Shown in pieces: positions 4,854 to 61,104 of a stretch of 64,000 nucleotides of DNA. The notes beneath the pieces are model-generated. The model did no database searches and had not been told where the DNA came from. It saw only the letters and a list, made by a program, of their open reading frames with translations. This stretch comes from Actinomycetes bacterium (GTDB lineage Bacteria; Armatimonadota; SYMT01): the NCBI GenBank assembly GCA_031426395.1, contig JANPLG010000182.1, positions 6,984-70,983 on the forward strand, given 5' to 3'. The position numbers were made by a program, and so were the translations under genes. The first letter of the stretch is position 1; every line of letters starts with the position of its first letter.

Positions 4854-5028
4854 GGTTTCGGGTCGCGAGGGCTGCCCGTCCTTACGGCTGCGAGCACCTT
4901 CGTCTCTCTACGTGAATTTTATCACAAGGAGCCGCCAGAAGTTTCAGCCGGACGGTCTCATTCATCTCGGGGCTAGGATCGCTGCGCGCGGACCTCCCGA
5001 GGCCGTGGAAGCATATCTCCGCCGGGTG

Positions 5029-5146
5029 CGGGTTTCCGGTTCCTTGTTTCAGGTTCCCGGTTCCCGGTTTCAGGTTTCCTGTTCCCTGTTTCCTGTTCCC
5101 GGTTTCAGGTTCCCTGTTCCCTGTTCCCGGTTTCCTGTTTCCCGTT
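5029..5146. repeat. Tandem heptamer array (KGTTYCM), about 16 units
   Basis: Direct read: ggtttcc ggttcct tgtttca ggttccc ggttccc ggtttca ... It lies about 180 bp upstream of nuoA on the minus strand. Confidence 0.8.
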
Positions 5147-5390
5147 AGGTGTGAGGCGGTGACGGTTGCGGGTTTGCAGGAGCGGTGCTTGGGGTGATGG
5201 CGGACCTAGCGGTGACTGGTTGCCAGAGTGTGGGGTGGTCGGCATTCTCGGAAAAACATACCGGGGGGGGCACCACCACCACCTCTGGGGCGAGGGAGCG
5301 ACACGGCGAAGGGGCGACGGAGTTGCCTGGGTCTCGGAGTGGTGTACGGATGTGCGGGGAGGTGCGGCCGGTCGGTTCTCGGTCAGGGTT

Positions 5391-5815
5391 CCGGGTAACG
5401 CGCTGGATTGGCGTGTTGCGCCCCAGGACGATGCCCTGGGCTACCTCATTGCGCCCCTTCAGGGCTGGGGAGGTTACCGTCCGCGTTCCCAGGGCGATGC
5501 CCTGGGCTGGGGTATTGCGCCCCGTTGGGGCTGGTGGTGTGGGACGCTGGGTGAAGCCGTAGAGCGTGGGGGCACTGGAGTGACGGGGTTGCCTGGTTCC
5601 GAAGTGGTATACGGCTGTCCAGTGGGGTGTTGCGGGACGGTTCGCGGCCGCCGGAATCCAACTGATGCGCTGGATTGGCGTGTTGCGACCCAGGGCGGTG
5701 CTCTGGGCTACCTTATTGCGCCCCTTCAGGGCTGGGGAGGTTGCCGTCCGCGTTCCCAGGGCGGTGCCCTGGGCTGGCGTATTGCGCCCCGTTGGGGCTG
5801 GTTGCCAGGGTCGGG
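5391..5815. repeat. REP-like repeat cluster: two copies of a ~145-bp unit, each with two GC-rich hairpins (CCCAGGGCGRTGCCCTGGG)
   Basis: Hairpins at 5422-5440, 5488-5506, 5697-5715 and 5756-5774. The nested sub-repeat ATTGCGCCCC(N)GGGGCTGG recurs. The cluster sits in a ~1.5-kb noncoding gap (4854-6408) that also holds G-tracts at 5263-5270 and 5908-5921. Confidence 0.7.
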
Positions 5816-6408
5816 GAACTGAACGGTGAGGCGTGGGGGCGGTGGTTGGTGGCTGTTGTGCGAGTGCGGCCACACTATTACCGAGGCGCTCAGATCGGGA
5901 ATTGAATGGGGGGAGGGGGGGTCCTTCTCCTTGGGGTGCCGGTGAGCCAGGTGGCGGACGGCGTGGCGGGGAGCGGTGCTGCGGAGTGGTGGTGCGGCGA
6001 CATTCCTCTTCTCCAGCGGTTGCGTGGGGATGATTTCCCTGAACGCTAAGTGGCTGGGAGAGGGGTGCTGTCCGACGGGGATTGCGGGCGCCCGTGTCCG
6101 CTTTCGTAATCGTCGTCACCTCATTCTCGGACTGCGGGGCGGCCGTCCCGGGCGTGGAAACCGTCTCCTTCGGGGGTCCAGTCGTACCTGGCCTGGGCGT
6201 AGGTCTCGCTCCGTCAGGTGGCTGACGGCCGATGGGGTCGCTGTCCCGGTGCGGGACGGGCGTGCCTGGACCCCCGCGAAGTACGGGCACCTTCGCAGTA
6301 AGATTGCCAGGCGAGGGTGACGGAGTCTCCGAGGGTGGAACGCTGCTCCTTCTTACCACGACCTCTTCAATTACTTTCAGCGGTCGCACCCCGAGCAGTA
6401 CCTGATCC

Positions 6409-8694
6409 TTGCCCCATCCCCCGGGCCAAGGCCGTGGTAAGCTTGAGGGTCCCTACGCGCTTGAGCTGGGGCGGTCGATTCCAGCAAGGCCCATAGCCGT
6501 GTCCCTGCCTGATTGGTACGAAAACGCGCTCGTTCTCCTCCACCTGGAGCACAACTACTCCCCTTCCGACCAGCCGTCGGCGCTGGGTGGGCTGGATATG
6601 GAGGAGATGCGCGAGGTCCTGGACCGCGTGCGTCCTGAGGTGATCGAGGTGACCGCGAAGGGCGCGGCTGGCTACGTCCCCTACCTCTCGCGCTACGGCA
6701 ACTGCCTGCCGCTGGTGGCCGACGCGGGCGCGCAGGACGTGCTGGCCCTCTGGCGGGAGCTGACCTCGCACCAGCACATCCGCTTTGTCCTGGGCTACAG
6801 CGGTCTGATCGACCACCGCGCCGCCTCGGAGCGGCCGGAGTGGCGGCGGCTCTCGATGCGGCACGACCCCTACCCCAACCGGGCGCTCTGCCCCAACAGC
6901 GGCTACGTGGATGAGCTGATGCTGCCGCAGTTGGAAGAGCTGGTTGAGTACTACCAGCCGGACGGCATCTGGCTGGATAACGACAACTGGACCGTCAGCC
7001 CCTGCCACTGCTCCGTCTGCGAGAGCGAGTACCAGATGCTGCACGGCCGGATGCCGCCGGACAACGCGCGGGACCCGTTCTGGCCGGAGTGGCTCCAGTT
7101 CCACCACGATAGCTTCGACCGCCACCTCAACCGCGTGGCCCGCTACCTGGAGAGCCGCCAGCCAGAGTTGATACTGACCTCCAACGGGACCGGGGCGCTG
7201 CATCATCCCGGCGCGGTGCCGATCAGCATCCGCCGCCTGACGCGCGATCTCTCCCCCGCCTATTCCCTCAAGCAGGCTGGCCTAGAAGCGCGGTTCCTCG
7301 ATGGCCGGGGCGTCCCGTTCGACTTGGGCACCTGGGTTACGTGCAGCGCGCGCCCTTTCCCGCAGGGTAAGACACCGGCCCTCCCCACTTATCCCAAGAC
7401 GGCCGCGCACCTGGAGCAGGAAGCAGGGGCGATCCTCGCCAGCGGGGGGCGCGTAACGCTCTGGCTGGAGCCGCGCCCGGATGATTCGCTCCCCCAGGCC
7501 GAGCTGGAGGTGGCCGAGGAAGCTGCCGCGTGGATTCGCGAGCGGGGGGAGTGGTCGACACGCACCACCAGTGCCGCCTACGTGGCCATCCTTCACAGCG
7601 AGGAGACGCACAGGAAGGCCGGCAATGGTCTCTACGATCCGGGGCCTTCGCTCGACCGTATTCGGGGCGCGCACCAGGCGCTAACGGAGCTGCGCCATCC
7701 GCACGACATCGTCAACGAGGCGGGGCTGCTGGCCCGGCTGGCGGAGTACCAACTGGTGGTGCTACCGGAGCAGGTCGCGCTCTCCCCTCGGGTGGAGGAT
7801 GCGCTGCGTGAGTGGGTCCGTTCCGGCGGCAAGCTGCTCGCTTCCGGTCGGGTGGCACCTCGACTCATCGAGGACCTGCCGACCTTCGCGCTGGAAGAGG
7901 TGCTGGGCATTCGCTGGACCGGTCGCCAGGAGCCGCAGAGCTGGACGGTGCTGAACGGCAAGCCGCTAAAGATCGGCGCGCCCTCCTACTCGGTCGCGCT
8001 CATCGGAGCGGAGATGCTGGCAGCTAATCTCGATCCGCAGCGACCCACCGCCGGCCGGGAGATGGCACTTCCCGCCGCCACGCGCTACGCCTACGGTGAG
8101 GGAGAAGGCTATTACCTCGCAAGCGACTTCTTCGCCGCCTACCACCGCCACCAATACCCCGGACTGCGCGACTTCCTCGGCATGATCCTGGAGAAAGCGC
8201 TCCCGCTGCCGCTGCTGCTCACCAATGCGCCGCCGAACATCGAGGTGACCGCGCGGCACGGCGAGGGATTCCTGGCGCTCCACTTCCTCAATCACGACCC
8301 GGGTAAGAGCCTCGGGCAGAACAGCGCGTTCATCGAGCGCGTGCCGCCGAATGAGCCGTTCACCGTCACCCTCACCATCTCGCTGCGCCCAGAGCTGGTG
8401 CGGCTGGAGCCGGGGGCACGGATTGTGGAGTGGACCTGGAACGCGGAGACGATGACGGCCTTCATCCCGCCCTTCGATGTCCACTCCGTTCTGGTGCTAA
8501 CCCTGCCGCCCGTGGTTGCCCCTGCAGAACCGACCGTCGATGCCCCTGCAGAACCGATCGTCGATGCCCCTGCAGAATCGACCGTCGAACATGTAACTGC
8601 CGACCAGGACGCTCCCGTCCCTGAGGATTCCCAGGTGCCGCTGACCGCTCTCCCAAACGAGGGGGAGGATCCGGCCGCACCTCCTCCCGCGTGA
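6409..8694 (+). CDS. Glycoside-hydrolase-like protein: GH29/GHL-type TIM-barrel N-domain plus a GATase1-like (GH42 trimerisation-like) middle domain; family uncertain, start uncertain
   Basis: YYQPDGIWLDNDNW resembles fucosidase/GHL catalytic motifs. AILHSEE...VLPEQVALS...GGKLLASG resembles the GH42 middle domain. The C-terminal linker has 3 x 24-bp tandem repeats (8521-8592, PAEPTVDA). Confidence 0.55.
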   Translation: MPHPPGQGRGKLEGPYALELGRSIPARPIAVSLPDWYENALVLLHLEHNYSPSDQPSALGGLDMEEMREVLDRVRPEVIEVTAKGAAGYVPYLSRYGNCLPLVADAGAQDVLALWRELTSHQHIRFVLGYSGLIDHRAASERPEWRRLSMRHDPYPNRALCPNSGYVDELMLPQLEELVEYYQPDGIWLDNDNWTVSPCHCSVCESEYQMLHGRMPPDNARDPFWPEWLQFHHDSFDRHLNRVARYLESRQPELILTSNGTGALHHPGAVPISIRRLTRDLSPAYSLKQAGLEARFLDGRGVPFDLGTWVTCSARPFPQGKTPALPTYPKTAAHLEQEAGAILASGGRVTLWLEPRPDDSLPQAELEVAEEAAAWIRERGEWSTRTTSAAYVAILHSEETHRKAGNGLYDPGPSLDRIRGAHQALTELRHPHDIVNEAGLLARLAEYQLVVLPEQVALSPRVEDALREWVRSGGKLLASGRVAPRLIEDLPTFALEEVLGIRWTGRQEPQSWTVLNGKPLKIGAPSYSVALIGAEMLAANLDPQRPTAGREMALPAATRYAYGEGEGYYLASDFFAAYHRHQYPGLRDFLGMILEKALPLPLLLTNAPPNIEVTARHGEGFLALHFLNHDPGKSLGQNSAFIERVPPNEPFTVTLTISLRPELVRLEPGARIVEWTWNAETMTAFIPPFDVHSVLVLTLPPVVAPAEPTVDAPAEPIVDAPAESTVEHVTADQDAPVPEDSQVPLTALPNEGEDPAAPPPA

Positions 8695-9643: not shown

Positions 9644-9720
9644 CCGGACTGGTCAGGCTGCGATGGAGAGCTTGAGAGATAGAGGGATGGAGAGACCCTG
9701 ACGTTGCCGTTCCCCACACC

Positions 9721-9769
9721 GCATTCCGCATTCCGCATTCCGCATTCCGCATTCCGCATTCCGCATTCG
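9721..9769. repeat. Tandem heptamer array (GCATTCC) x7 between convergent genes
   Basis: Seven perfect GCATTCC units, 78 nt after the fpg stop and 10 nt before the hemQ stop. A degenerate copy sits at 60969-61010. Confidence 0.85.
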
Positions 9770-15620: not shown

Positions 15621-16120
15621 CAGGCCTCCTCATCGCCGCGCATCGTGATCGGTCCGCAATTGGGCGGCAGCCAATCTATGAAGCGCTGAGCGATAGGAGG
15701 TCACAATCCACGGCCCGGTTTCTTGTCTCTTGGTTTCCACCTGGGCCAGTACGAACCCCTGATCACGCCCCCAGAACCCCGACAGGCTCGCTGGTATCCA
15801 TCCAGCCCACAGACCCCTCTGTTGCGATCGTTGCATTCTGAATTCTGCATCCTGAATTCCTAGCCCTGATCACGGATAGCACCCTGGCGGCCCGCAGTTT
15901 CCGGCGATACCGGGCGAGGGTAGACCTCGCCGGGCGGCAGGCGTAGCCCTGGGCGCGGATGGACCGTCGGATGTTCCACGGAACCTGGTGGATGGATCGG
16001 TGGCCTTACACGTATCTAAGACTAGGCAACCGTAGCACGCGCGTAGGGGGTTCCCCTGGCAACTCGCGAGGCGCGCGGAGCCAGGCAAGTCGCTTCCCTC
16101 TTTCCTGATCGAGGTCACTC

Positions 16121-17283: not shown

Positions 17284-17324
17284 CAATTTGCAATTCTCAA
17301 TTGACAATTGCAAATTGACAATTC
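17284..17324. promoter_or_regulatory. AT-rich element with CAATTG/TTGCAA palindromes and two TTGACA hexamers in the yeaH-spoVR spacer
   Basis: Direct read: caatttgcaattctcaattgacaattgcaaattgacaatt. It shares the 12-mer AATTGCAAATTG with the element upstream of asnS (26221-26266). Confidence 0.4.
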
Positions 17325-20283: not shown

Positions 20284-20420
20284 TGCCGGGGAGACGCTCC
20301 CCTCTGACAGCTAGACGGACCACGGCAGCGCAAGGTTCCAAGGCGCAGAACCCGTCGCAGAGTCGGCGCTGGTGCGTCCCGTGACGCAGCGGCACCCGCA
20401 ATTCGCAATCCGTAATCGCC

Positions 20421-26225: not shown

Positions 26226-26266
26226 GTTTGCAAACTGAAAATTGCAAACTGAAAATTGCAAATTGG
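26226..26266. promoter_or_regulatory. AT-rich tandem repeat (TTGCAAACTGAAAA x2 + TTGCAAATTGG) with the 10-bp palindrome GTTTGCAAAC, upstream of asnS
   Basis: Direct read. It shares AATTGCAAATTG with the spoVR upstream element. It lies 117 nt upstream of the asnS start in a GC-rich genome. Confidence 0.4.
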
Positions 26267-29421: not shown

Positions 29422-29720
29422 CCATTGCGGATTTCGGATTTCGGATTTCGGATTTCGGATTTCGGATGCGGGTTGGCTGGAGGCAGGGCGTTGCTTCATC
29501 TTCGTCTTCTCCGCTCGACGGGCCGGTCGCTGGAAAACCCCGTGGACCGTCACTCTGGGCGTCCCCACCCTGCCGGCGCGCGGACTCACTGCCCTCCCAG
29601 AGTCCACCCGGATCCGTGCTCAGCGTCGAAACAGTCCCTCTGCTGCTCGGTGGCCACGGGCGACCGTGACCGGATTGGGACGCGGATTGGGACGCGGATT
29701 GGGACGCGGATTGGCTCGAG
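29422..29720. repeat. MITE-like element, subfamily A copy (5' TIR CCATTGCGG(ATTTCGG)4-5 GATGCGGGTTGGCTGG; degenerate 3' end with a (CGGATTGGGACG)x3 array at 29672-29716)
   Basis: The 5' 55 bp are near-identical to the 5' end of the 59857-60098 element. The internal region is homologous but diverged (…GGACTCACTGCCCTCCCAGAGTCCACCCGGATCCG…). Confidence 0.5.
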
Positions 29721-30118: not shown

Positions 30119-31570
30119 ATGGCCCGGCGGGTGGCGGGCAACTCGATCTGGCTGATCGGGCAGCCCCTGCTGCTGAACGTGCTCTCCATCGCCAGCACCG
30201 CTTACATCTCGCGGAAGCTGGGAGCGGACGGCTACGGCATCTTTAACCTCGGCCTGGCCGAAGCGACCCTCTTCGCCCCGATCTGCAACCTGGGGCTCAG
30301 GGCAGTGATGGTCCGCAAGATCTCCAGCGATCGCGACCAGGCGGAACATGCCACCGCCGTCTTCGGGATGCTCCGTCTCCTGACCTGCTGCTTCGCGACC
30401 CTGCTCGCACTAGTCTGGCTGCTGCGCCCGGGCGTCGACCTCCCGGTGCGGCTGGTCGGCATGGCGGTGGTGGTGTGCGTCATCCTGACCGGCGCGGGGC
30501 AGGTGGCGGTCGACCTGGCCCAGGGTTACGAGCGTTCGCGGCTCGGGGCGCAGCCGCAGTTGGTCGGCGGGATCGTTCTGACGGTCTGCTCCGTGCTGGC
30601 GCTGGTGCTGGGGTGGGGACTGCCGGGGTTTGTCGCGGCCTACGTGCTGGGCGCCGCGCTCCAGTTCGTCTTACTGGTCAGGATGGTCCGCCGCAACTTC
30701 TTCCCACCACGGGTGCACTGGGACCTGCCGCAGATGCGCGCCTACGCGATGGAAGCGCGCCCCTTCGCGCTCAAGAGCGTCATCGGCACCAACACCCAGC
30801 CGGGCGTGCTGGACGTGGTCATCCTGGGAATGTTTGCCACCCAGGGTACGGTGGGAGCCTACGCCGCAGCGATTGGGCTCGTCTCCCGGCTCCTGATCAT
30901 CCCGCTGGGTGTGGGTGACGCGCTCTACCCGGCCATCGCAGGCAGCATTGGCAAGGACACCGCCGCGACGCAGCGCGAGGCTCGGCGGGTGCTGACGCTT
31001 CTGCTCCTGGTGACCCTCCCCGTTGCCGTGGGAATCGGCATGACCGCGCCGACCGTCTTGAACATCCTCTTCGGTCGGGAGTACGTCTCAGCCGCGCCCG
31101 CCATGCAGATCGCCGTGCTGCTGCTTCCGCTCAACGGCCTCTCCTACGCCCTCAACGAGTGCCTCAGCGCCGCGCATCGGCAGAACGACGTAGCAAAGCT
31201 GACCGTAGCGGGCGGTGCGCTGCTGCTGGTGCTGTTCGCCGTCTTCATTCCGATCATGGGAATCCTGGGCGCGGCGCTGGCGCTGGTGGCACGCGATGCG
31301 CTGATGCTTCCGTTCCGACTGCGGGTGTTCCGGGTGGTCCTTGGCCAGCCGCTCCGCCGAAGCGACCTCTTCAGGCTGGCCGTGGCATCCGGGCTTATGG
31401 CGATCCCGCTGGCCCTGGCACCTGGCATCTCCAATACTCCCGCTACCGTGGGAGTGGGACTCCTCAGCCTGGCCGTCTACGGCAGCGTGGCGATTCTACT
31501 GGGGCTGGTCCCCGGAGTGAGGCTCCCGCGATCTGGGGCCGGAACCGCCGCAGCTTCACCTGCTGGCTGA
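30119..31570 (+). CDS. Polysaccharide/oligosaccharide flippase (Wzx/MOP-superfamily, polysaccharide biosynthesis protein family); start set at MARRVAG
   Basis: About 12-14 TM helices, typical N-terminus (…NSIWLIGQPLLLNVLSIASTAYISRKLGADGYGIF…), GAAGG RBS at the chosen ATG. Confidence 0.75.
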   Translation: MARRVAGNSIWLIGQPLLLNVLSIASTAYISRKLGADGYGIFNLGLAEATLFAPICNLGLRAVMVRKISSDRDQAEHATAVFGMLRLLTCCFATLLALVWLLRPGVDLPVRLVGMAVVVCVILTGAGQVAVDLAQGYERSRLGAQPQLVGGIVLTVCSVLALVLGWGLPGFVAAYVLGAALQFVLLVRMVRRNFFPPRVHWDLPQMRAYAMEARPFALKSVIGTNTQPGVLDVVILGMFATQGTVGAYAAAIGLVSRLLIIPLGVGDALYPAIAGSIGKDTAATQREARRVLTLLLLVTLPVAVGIGMTAPTVLNILFGREYVSAAPAMQIAVLLLPLNGLSYALNECLSAAHRQNDVAKLTVAGGALLLVLFAVFIPIMGILGAALALVARDALMLPFRLRVFRVVLGQPLRRSDLFRLAVASGLMAIPLALAPGISNTPATVGVGLLSLAVYGSVAILLGLVPGVRLPRSGAGTAAASPAG

Positions 31571-46652: not shown

Positions 46653-46983
46653 CGGGATTTCGAATTTCGAGTTTCGGATTTCGAGTTGGGGACGGTGAGG
46701 CATCCGTTTTGTCGGGCGGATTCAATTCGCCATAGTCAGCAGCCTTGTGCTGCGTTCGATCACGGCGGCCGGCGTGTGACCCCACCGCACCCTCGCCCGC
46801 CATCCGCGATCCGCCTTCGCGCGACAGGTCAGGTGCAGAGACCAGCCGACTACCGTCATCGAACGCGGCACAAGGCCGCTGGCTATGGGCTGTGGCCGAT
46901 GACTGGCCGTATGACCTGATGAGCCTGCCTGGCAACACGGAGTCCGTCACCGTCCCCAACCCGAAACTCGAAATCCGCAATTG
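46653..46983. repeat. MITE-like element, subfamily B, full-length with about 35-bp heptamer-built terminal inverted repeats
   Basis: 5' GCGGGATTTCGAATTTCGAGTTTCGGATTTCGAGTTGGGGACGG. 3' reverse complement CAATTGCGGATTTCGAGTTTCGGGTTGGGGACGG. Internal long hairpin CCATAGTCAGCAGCCTTGTGCTGCGTTCGATCAC…CATCGAACGCGGCACAAGGCCGCTGGCTATGG. It sits exactly between the convergent stops of 46013-46651 and pyrD. Confidence 0.65.
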
Positions 46984-59856: not shown

Positions 59857-60098
59857 CAATTGCGGATTTCGGATTTCGAGTTTCGGATTTGGATGCGGGT
59901 TGGCTGGTTGTGGGAATCCGTATCGTCTCTTCCGGTGCGTGGACTCAACGCTCGATTCGAATCCACCCGGACCCGCACTGCGGGTGGCCAGTCCGAAGAG
60001 GGACTGCTCCGTCACGCAGTCTCGCGAAAGGCGGCTCATCTGGTGAGACGGTCGTTGTCGCACGCAACTCGAAATCCGAAATCCGAAATCCGAAATTG
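59857..60098. repeat. MITE-like element, subfamily A, full-length (242 bp) with ~30-bp heptamer TIRs, between convergent stop codons
   Basis: 5' CAATTGCGGATTTCGGATTTCGAGTTTCGGATTTGG. 3' reverse complement CAATTTCGGATTTCGGATTTCGGATTTCGAGTTGCG. It starts 2 nt after the AAA-ATPase stop and ends 10 nt before the Lon-N gene stop. Confidence 0.65.
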
Positions 60099-60810: not shown

Positions 60811-61104
60811 GACCTGTTCCGCCCGCTCGAGCGGGATCCTTACCGCATACGGGTCGATAAAGCTGTCCCCGCTGACTCGTTGTAACCAGTGACGGGCAGC
60901 GGCGGAACGTGAGCCCCGGCAAGCCCCATCTGCGGCGCAGCGGAAAGGCACCTGGACTGCGGACAACTGCATCCGCATTCCGCATTCCGCGATCCACATT
61001 CCGAAATCGCCGACCCGGTTCGTGGTAACATGAACGGACCTCGTCCAAACCCTCTCTGCGCCGCGTCCGCGCCGCGCCCTCGTTCCCGCTATAGGAGCCC
61101 CAAG

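Follow-up and report, generated by a model that had tools for sequence, protein, structure and literature searches.

Acido-Lenti-1 elements in the spacer upstream of nuoA of an Armatimonadota genome: a probable REP-like DNA repeat, associated elsewhere with a Y1 transposase gene

The question raised by this locus is what kind of element fills the long spacer between nuoA and a divergently oriented glycoside hydrolase (GH) gene in a 64,000-nt stretch of an Armatimonadota genome (assembly GCA_031426395.1, contig JANPLG010000182.1, positions 6,984 to 70,983), hereafter the window, in whose own numbering all coordinates are given. An earlier note, made from the DNA letters, had described here about 1.5 kb of non-coding DNA packed with heptamers, hairpins and G-tracts, and had proposed a cluster of repetitive extragenic palindromes (REPs) or bacterial interspersed mosaic elements (BIMEs), a small RNA (sRNA) locus or a rearrangement hotspot. 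The hairpins turn out to be four copies of an element catalogued in Rfam as Acido-Lenti-1 (RF01687), and the cluster is probably a REP/BIME-like DNA repeat of that type, selfish or neutral, lying in lineage-specific non-coding DNA. Since inverted copies of the same element bracket an IS200-like Y1 transposase gene in other genomes, Acido-Lenti-1 itself is most likely a REP-type selfish repeat and not a gene.

The four units lie at 5422-5466 (unit 1), 5488-5532 (unit 2), 5689-5733 (unit 3) and 5755-5799 (unit 4), all on the + strand, and a search with filters off finds no minus-strand copy in the window. Each opens with a GC-rich hairpin of 8 bp, after which come an invariant CT, a linker of about 10 nt and a 5-bp hairpin; in unit 1 these are hairpin B (CCCAGGACGATGCCCTGGG), the linker CTACCTCATTG and the hairpin CGCCCCTTCAGGGC. 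The GC hairpins occupy 5422-5440, 5488-5506, 5689-5707 and 5755-5773; the first two had been placed exactly in the earlier note, while the third and fourth have to be moved from 5697-5715 and 5756-5774, respectively. Unit 2 begins 21 nt past unit 1, giving a direct doublet with a 66-nt period, and units 3 and 4 are the copies of units 1 and 2 in the second half of a tandem duplication of about 267 nt, whose two repeats span about 5296-5545 and about 5562-5812 on the + strand. The two direct repeats of about 145 bp reported previously correspond to the 147-nt core of this duplication (5400-5546 and 5667-5813, 91% identity, spacing 267 nt), the real unit being the longer one; the wider similarity covers 222 nt at 85% (5316-5535 and 5582-5802). 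What is kept across phyla is a three-hairpin module of about 88 nt, composed of hairpin A (CGCCCCTTCAGGGCT), a spacer of about 22 nt, hairpin B, the linker and hairpin C, which exceeds the extent of the Rfam model and is present twice on the + strand, at 5448-5534 and 5713-5801, as delimited by blastn. The window module is 86-87% identical over 91-93 nt to a Sedimentisphaerales contig (L005) and about 77-81% identical over 83-100 nt to many motif loci of other phyla, and the direct doublet as a whole finds a counterpart on a Victivallales contig (L020) at 77-78% identity over 116 nt. The motif pattern has four exact matches in the window, against 0.40 expected with up to three mismatches tolerated. 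A CRISPR-like array was dismissed, the apparent spacers being themselves duplicated, and attC sites were considered and dropped without a specific test.

Membership of the Rfam family was assessed with its covariance model, whose gathering score is 37 bits. All four units reach it, three of them only just (38.2, 37.2, 43.4 and 37.1 bits for units 1 to 4), with E-values from 1.6e-6 to 8.4e-5 for the whole window, and no further match is found in the 64 kb even at E<=1. A second covariance model, R1, built from 48 seed sequences of Weinberg and six genome-contig sequences (L006, L013, L024, L047, L053 and L072), gives 40.4, 40.4, 45.0 and 40.5 bits, respectively, and nothing else above about 8 bits (E > 1) in the window. 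In the alignments to the Rfam model the units show the family architecture, with an 8-bp hairpin, a 12-nt linker carrying GGCU...UAU..CG and a 5-bp hairpin, although unit 1 has a weakened upper stem of six pairs and the loop of hairpin 2 is closed by a C-A mismatch in units 1 and 3. Both Rfam and the original description (Weinberg et al., 2010; PMC2864571) regard Acido-Lenti-1 as a probable sRNA, acting in trans, from Acidobacteria and Lentisphaerae and not associated with any gene. The Lentisphaera seed coordinates of the family also indicate tandem copies, with periods of 69-200 nt, so that the window shares with the described family both the two hairpins and the tandem arrangement; it differs in that the element is found here in Armatimonadota and many more phyla, is tied to a Y1 gene and is part of the longer three-hairpin module.

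The spread of the element was followed on genome contigs with a search pattern derived from the window copies, CYCTGGGCTNNNNNATTGCGCCCC, which contains 19 specific bases. It matched at least 117 stretches, which, among those listed, belong to Planctomycetota, Verrucomicrobiota, Acidobacteriota, Lentisphaerota, Desulfobacterota, Lysobacterales, Bacteroidota and others, and several genomes gave many matching contigs each among the matches listed. A search of the literature by sequence returned nothing relevant to the repeat. In many loci two modules are inverted with their hairpin-A ends face to face: among 41 adjacent pairs of matches in 58 genome loci, 28 have this inverted layout with a gap of about 85-115 nt, seven are inverted the opposite way and six are direct, two of the latter with a gap of 22-23 nt comparable to the 21 nt of the window. 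Single copies, too, are dispersed in these genomes beside the inverted doublets and direct arrays. When every open reading frame (ORF) in the 117 motif loci was clustered, the sole recurrent neighbour family of interest was a protein of about 150 aa, present in five loci from five genomes and each time within about 150 nt of the motif; larger neighbour clusters, such as ABC transporters and response regulators, were set aside as present by chance.

This protein is a Y1 HuH transposase. It matches Pfam Y1_Tnp PF01797 (E=8e-23), and its best NCBIfam model is that of IS200/IS605 transposases (NF033573), which it passes with 60.3 bits against a cut-off of 55; in the model of REP-associated tyrosine transposases (RAYTs; NF047646) it fails, with 21.2 bits against a cut-off of 80. 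It carries the motifs DH[VI]H, WQ and YIxNQxEHH and a conserved C-terminal tail of about 30 aa, without the RAYT signature Y..NP. By these motifs the protein corresponds to subclass 1.2 of TnpA-Y1, described as low-copy, not like an insertion sequence (IS) and found mostly in Cyanobacteria or Bacteroidetes (Quentin et al., 2018; PMC6006769). Class 3 Y1 proteins of the same classification, which occur in Planctomycetes and Acidobacteria and were considered on taxonomic grounds, were rejected: they have the tyrosine motif YV[VI]xEQ and not YIxNQxEHH.

The association was examined in the reciprocal direction in 80 metagenomic loci selected only because they encode this Y1 protein, drawn from at least 588 relatives; none of them is in the training set of R1. 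With this model 67 of the 80 loci contain matches at E<=0.01, 161 in total and none of them within the gene. Their density is 4.6 per kb up to 150 nt from the gene and drops to 0.02-0.05 per kb at distances above 600 nt; as background, 51.6 kb of DNA from relatives of the window genome gave no match. The matches are also oriented: of 53 loci with a match upstream, 45 have the nearest one on the minus strand, about 54 nt ahead of the start codon, and of 50 with a match downstream, 42 have the nearest one on the plus strand, about 52 nt past the stop codon. The official Rfam model at its gathering score confirms 11 matches in six of 20 Y1 loci, including both flanks of L144 and L163, and in L144 the full layout can be read as [C' B' A'], about 15 nt, GTG...gene...TGA, about 15 nt, [A B C]. 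The layout of the 28 inverted pairs is thus the gene-flanking one minus the gene, in the manner of a REPIN (a doublet of inverted REPs) or of a miniature inverted-repeat transposable element (MITE). Direct arrays of four or five copies also adjoin some Y1 genes (L123, L166 and L177). The densest cluster seen is that of a Deltaproteobacteria metagenome-assembled genome (MAG; L004, 1858-2902), in which at least ten R1 matches surround a Y1 gene at 2230-2700, with three direct copies at a 107-nt period on one side and two copies at a 129-nt period on the other. The family therefore has a tight and oriented association with the subclass-1.2 Y1 gene and a multi-copy spread over several phyla.

These data suggest how the cluster may have arisen. 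By analogy with the RAYT/REP and IS200/IS605 systems, the Y1 enzyme would recognise the hairpins in single-stranded DNA and would cut and rejoin the strand beside the hairpin foot, so that the repeats are spread or maintained. The CT directly 3' of hairpin B, near-invariant in the copies adjacent to Y1 genes (113/115 and 115/115), corresponds on the reverse strand to an AG at the 5' foot of the stem; the two bases preceding it vary, and GTAG itself is found only in some copies, including units 1 and 3 of the window. At this locus a direct doublet with the 66-nt period would have been inserted in the lineage and then carried into the tandem duplication of about 267 nt, giving four elements. The cluster, which lies upstream of a conserved nuoA control region, would have no dedicated function for nuo; if transcribed, its hairpins could act on the stability of the RNA or on termination in the manner of REPs.

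The resemblance to REPs is partial. As in the REP/REPIN-RAYT systems (REPtrons) of Enterobacteria and Pseudomonas, the elements of the family are short, GC-rich extragenic palindromes in many copies, one small Y1 HuH gene stands between inverted copies and inverted doublets are the commonest dispersed form; on the reverse strand, the invariant AG that adjoins the stem is reminiscent of GTAG, the foot of classical REPs (PMC3733652). Unlike REPtrons, the family has an enzyme lacking the Y..NP signature, a foot of the form N-Y-A-G instead of GTAG, two or three hairpins per unit and frequent direct tandem arrays. Among the three readings proposed in the earlier note, the BIME/REP cluster is the one that best accounts for a multi-copy family of several phyla bracketing a Y1 gene, and it holds in a modified form, the locus not being a classical BIME: like the BIMEs of Escherichia coli it gathers several REP-like units in one intergenic region, but those alternate in orientation and have defined inter-REP motifs, whereas the four units of the window all point the same way and derive in part from the duplication. 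A further parallel is offered by the TIRtrons (Di Nocera et al., 2013; PMC3733652), in which a Y1 gene is enclosed by long, partly self-complementary inverted repeats, themselves the members of moderately abundant repeat families; the TIRYT proteins listed there (e.g., aba 1552 and aba 3477) carry Y..NP and so belong to a different protein family, and the supplements of that paper contain no repeat sequence matching that of the window.

Several observations weigh against a REP-like origin of the cluster. No Y1 gene is present within the 64-kb window, and the window copies are only four and all direct, an arrangement that is in the minority in the family; where other genomes give many contigs, the source genome was seen as 64 kb with four copies at one locus. 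The genome-contig loci were chosen by an exact pattern, which biases both their copy numbers and their sequence conservation. A divergent promoter region is an atypical site for enterobacterial REPs, and to our knowledge neither cleavage nor mobility has been shown for this class of Y1 enzymes. Moreover, no REPs were reported for subclass 1.2 (Quentin et al., 2018; PMC6006769), and the covariation of the stems, described below, fits an RNA hairpin equally well.

The last point brings in the reading implied by the Rfam entry, namely that the four units are genuine Acido-Lenti-1 sRNA genes or parts of one structured + strand transcript, acting in trans or as a leader of the GH gene. Formally it has the gathering scores of all four units on its side, and the stems covary strongly: compensatory changes are seen at 12 of the 13 pairs, with 94.9% of the cells paired, and on the Y1 loci a sequence-only hidden Markov model (nhmmer) recovers 16 matches at E<=0.01 against the 161 of the covariance model, so the structure is more conserved than the sequence (for the analysis of the architecture the former model was dropped as too insensitive). 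The motif has the same orientation as the downstream GH gene, and the + strand of the spacer is rich in G and T, with a GC skew of up to +0.33. Yet the nature of the pairs points elsewhere. Functional RNAs usually tolerate G-U pairs far better than A-C mismatches. The 115 distinct copies adjacent to Y1 genes contain 1,416 Watson-Crick pairs, 8 G-T and 18 A-C, a G-T count to be read with the caveat that the model to which these copies were aligned had been trained on seeds poor in G-U; G-T being rarer than A-C, the pattern fits selection on DNA hairpins. The non-Watson-Crick cells of the stems (alignments A4 and A5) are mostly A-C or C-A, which on the strand opposite to the Rfam orientation correspond to G-T; the strand chosen by Rfam may be the wrong one, or the structure may be selected in DNA. 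To this are added the inverted copies around a transposase gene and the gene-less inverted doublets, the absence of any orientation preference of the motif relative to its flanking genes in a crude ORF map of the genome-contig loci, and the close relatives that lack the whole spacer. A scan limited, for promoters, to the sigma-70-like type found none, and a single terminator-like site against a mean of 2.0 in shuffled sequence. The 451-nt core folds as + strand RNA no better than its shuffles (z = -0.68; -4.27 for the minus strand) and the DNA of each doublet gives z between -0.85 and -1.9, folding statistics that do not separate the hypotheses. An RNA gene or leader is on the whole unlikely here, and the sRNA locus suggested in the earlier note, for all its formal support from Rfam, is probably the wrong option.

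The Y1 protein itself supports another interpretation, in which an ordinary IS of the IS200/IS605 type, a conventional selfish element instead of a domesticated REP/RAYT-like system, would have this element as its structured end, with the scattered copies as its MITE derivatives and decayed MITE remnants in the window: the protein exceeds the IS200/IS605 cut-off and remains far below the REP-associated one, and the gene-less doublets do resemble MITEs. Here, however, the two ends are inverted copies of one three-hairpin module, while those of IS200/IS605 elements are different, asymmetric hairpins on one strand (PMC6006769), and no tnpB gene recurs among the neighbours. According to Quentin et al. 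(2018; PMC6006769), subclass 1.2 is also low-copy and the copies of a given genome share about 36% identity; the Y1 genes that stand beside near-identical repeats are just 35-46% identical to one another. Such an origin is thus quite improbable. With that subclass the motif-linked protein shares its size of about 150 aa, DH[IV]H, WQ, Y---Q--HH and the conserved C-terminal tail; neither REPs nor terminal hairpins had been reported for it, in contrast to the flanking hairpin repeats of the 67 genes described above, and its hosts here include Planctomycetes-Verrucomicrobia-Chlamydiae (PVC) bacteria, Acidobacteriota and Desulfobacterota.

Returning to the REP-like repeat, the balance of these observations leans towards a broader proposal, that Acido-Lenti-1 is not an sRNA but the DNA repeat partner of subclass 1.2 Y1 enzymes, in an unrecognised REPIN/RAYT-like system present in at least seven phyla (the PVC group, Acidobacteriota, Desulfobacterota, some Gammaproteobacteria and Bacteroidota, and now Armatimonadota). 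For the locus studied here the outcome is deflationary, an unusual structured region being explained by selfish or neutral repeat DNA and a microsatellite. For the Rfam family, recognition as a REP-type DNA repeat would keep hundreds of 'sRNA genes' from being wrongly annotated in the genomes of PVC bacteria, Acidobacteria and others. Subclass 1.2, whose function was open, would gain a repeat partner and with it a testable substrate, a hairpin with an N-Y-A-G foot; if true, this would change the view that it has neither REPs nor IS properties, and would extend the REP/RAYT type of relationship between host and element to phyla not described with this type of enzyme.

The spacer in which the cluster lies is best regarded as non-coding DNA in which repeats have accumulated. 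It begins at 4854, next to the ATG of nuoA (4853, minus strand), and its other limit depends on the start of the GH gene: a mechanical ORF call places it at TTG 6409, the database protein (NCBI, same contig, 731 aa) starts 30 codons later, at GTG 6499, and the homologues span only 86-90% of the long form, so that the 90 nt of 6409-6498 are probably non-coding. With the more likely GTG start the spacer is 4854-6498, that is 1,645 bp, slightly longer than the roughly 1.5 kb of non-coding DNA proposed before. The + strand runs of G include the G8 at 5263-5270, as previously given, and one at 5908-5921 that is G6AG7 and not G3AG7; a canonical G-quadruplex (G4) motif (G3+N1-7 x4) is found on neither strand of 4854-6498, and the idea of a quadruplex is abandoned.

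The comparison with relatives, which the earlier note had recommended, shows that the cluster is lineage-specific. The NuoD of the window, 76-82% identical to proteins of named MAGs, places the organism in Armatimonadota. In three relatives from this phylum (L200-L202) only 238-325 nt lie upstream of nuoA, the upstream genes are unlike those of the window and R1 finds no match in the 17 kb examined from each. What they do share with the window is the palindrome TTGTGATAAAATTCAC (4912-4927, minus strand), invariant in the three relatives, 58 nt from the ATG of nuoA and part of the outer portion of the conserved nuoA control region. It resembles both a CRP-type TGTGA-N6-TCAC site and an extended -10 element (TGnTAAAAT), and is probably the actual control element of nuo. 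The heptamers and the REP-like cluster lie outside this conserved block, which indicates a lineage-specific addition and not a part of the conserved nuo leader; only in this weak sense, of a lineage-specific spacer with a local duplication, can the locus be called a rearrangement hotspot. Two contigs (L001 and L002) from the Logan assembly of SRR20217183, an independent assembly of the same sample, match the window at 4854-5139 and 6297-6498, the former with one difference in 286 bases, and these two short contigs were all that look-ups with the exact NuoA, 414-aa ORF and GH proteins yielded; that assembly stops within the heptamer array and ahead of the GH gene, and because its contigs end at the repeats the core at 5140-6296 is without the support of a second assembly.

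A 414-aa ORF rich in Pro, Thr and Arg crosses the cluster on the minus strand (5145-6389) and is annotated as a protein by NCBI (P0001); it might be taken for a real, lineage-specific disordered protein, the internal repeats of which would be the DNA repeats. In its favour, besides the annotation, is its length, the frame being open for 435 codons from stop to stop and exceeding 99.8% of the dinucleotide shuffles of the same strand. This length can be attributed to the minus strand being poor in T, on which stop codons are rare, and to internal duplications that copy stop-free sequence and extend any open frame. No Pfam domain is found in the product, and a search of 5.8 billion clustered proteins recovers no homologue except the product itself. 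GC at codon positions 1, 2 and 3 of the frame is flat (0.675/0.665/0.66), unlike that of each neighbouring gene (GC3 0.72-0.88, GC2 0.37-0.47; for nuoA, nuoC, the hydrolase gene and the next one GC3 is given as 0.80-0.88). Furthermore, the frame crosses elements whose hairpins, and not their translation, are kept across phyla. A genuine protein is therefore highly improbable; the ORF is almost certainly a spurious product of the repeats and of the T-poor strand, as the earlier note had recognised in calling it a mere translation of the repeats, and the annotated protein should be dropped.

The heptamer array next to the cluster is a separate, ordinary intergenic microsatellite with a 7-nt unit. 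Tandem Repeats Finder (TRF) delimits it at 5031-5144, with a period of 7, 16.1 copies and 75% matches, slightly inside the 5029-5146 given before; it reads (KGTTYCM)x16 on the + strand and (GGGAACM/GGAAACM)n on the minus strand. The 16 units noted previously are indeed in perfect register and all conform to [GT]GTT[CT]C[ACT], 15 of them fitting KGTTYCM. A pattern of two consecutive units has 12 matches in the window, all within the array, against 0.21 expected. Heptamers are nevertheless no peculiarity of this locus, since by TRF the window has 13 arrays of period 7, almost all of them intergenic, of which that at 5031-5144 is the longest; the other 12 are at 9719-9768, 15835-15859, 17298-17323, 20396-20417, 26228-26265, 29424-29467, 31409-31427, 46657-46684, 46797-46815, 59859-59894, 60070-60096 and 60972-61003, with no REP-like element nearby. 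Some units recur, those of the ATTTCGG family at four sites and those of the CCGCATT family at two to four, and the arrays at 29424 and 59859 have common flanks (ATTGCGGATTTCGG...GGATGCGGGTTGGCTGG), which suggests that some arrays belong to a larger dispersed repeat. The over-representation of heptameric repeats between bacterial genes is documented (PMC4692102, PMC4679880), with many arrays of intergenic 7-nt units such as GGGAATC in Xanthomonas, GGGGAYT in Nostoc, the cyanobacterial short tandemly repeated repetitive (STRR) sequences and TAACTGA in Beggiatoaceae; the minus-strand unit of the window, GGGAACM, is close to the (GGGANTN)n type but forms no canonical G4 motif.

In other genomes heptamer arrays stand beside REP-like elements or a Y1 gene at L159 1031-1134, L199 523-549 and 1293-1332, L037 3527-3699, L056 5809-5842 and L107 59-128; in L199 the gene has CAGTGGG repeats on its upstream side and, inverted with respect to them, CCCACTG repeats on its downstream side. 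Of the 17 short-period arrays in the Y1 loci ten have a period of 7, as do about half of those in the genome loci, and six of ten heptamer arrays of the Y1 loci are no more than 70 nt from a REP match, a proximity that is inseparable from both being intergenic. A specific link between heptamers and REP-like elements is thus suggestive; a more speculative idea would have the same enzyme produce, as by-products, the arrays that often accompany the elements.

Two further observations concern the flanking genes. Two Armatimonadota relatives, L200 (9722-10357) and the JGI contig encoding P0049, have a gene of the Uma2 family (PF05685) inserted between their nuoE and nuoF genes; the insertion is absent from L201, L202 and the window, in which nuoE (1368-1973) is directly followed by nuoF (39-1361). 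At the other side of the spacer, the GH gene contains at 8506-8588 a 24-nt tandem repeat (3.5 copies, 89% matches), which corresponds to the C-terminal tail of the protein and encodes PAEPTVDA-like repeats.

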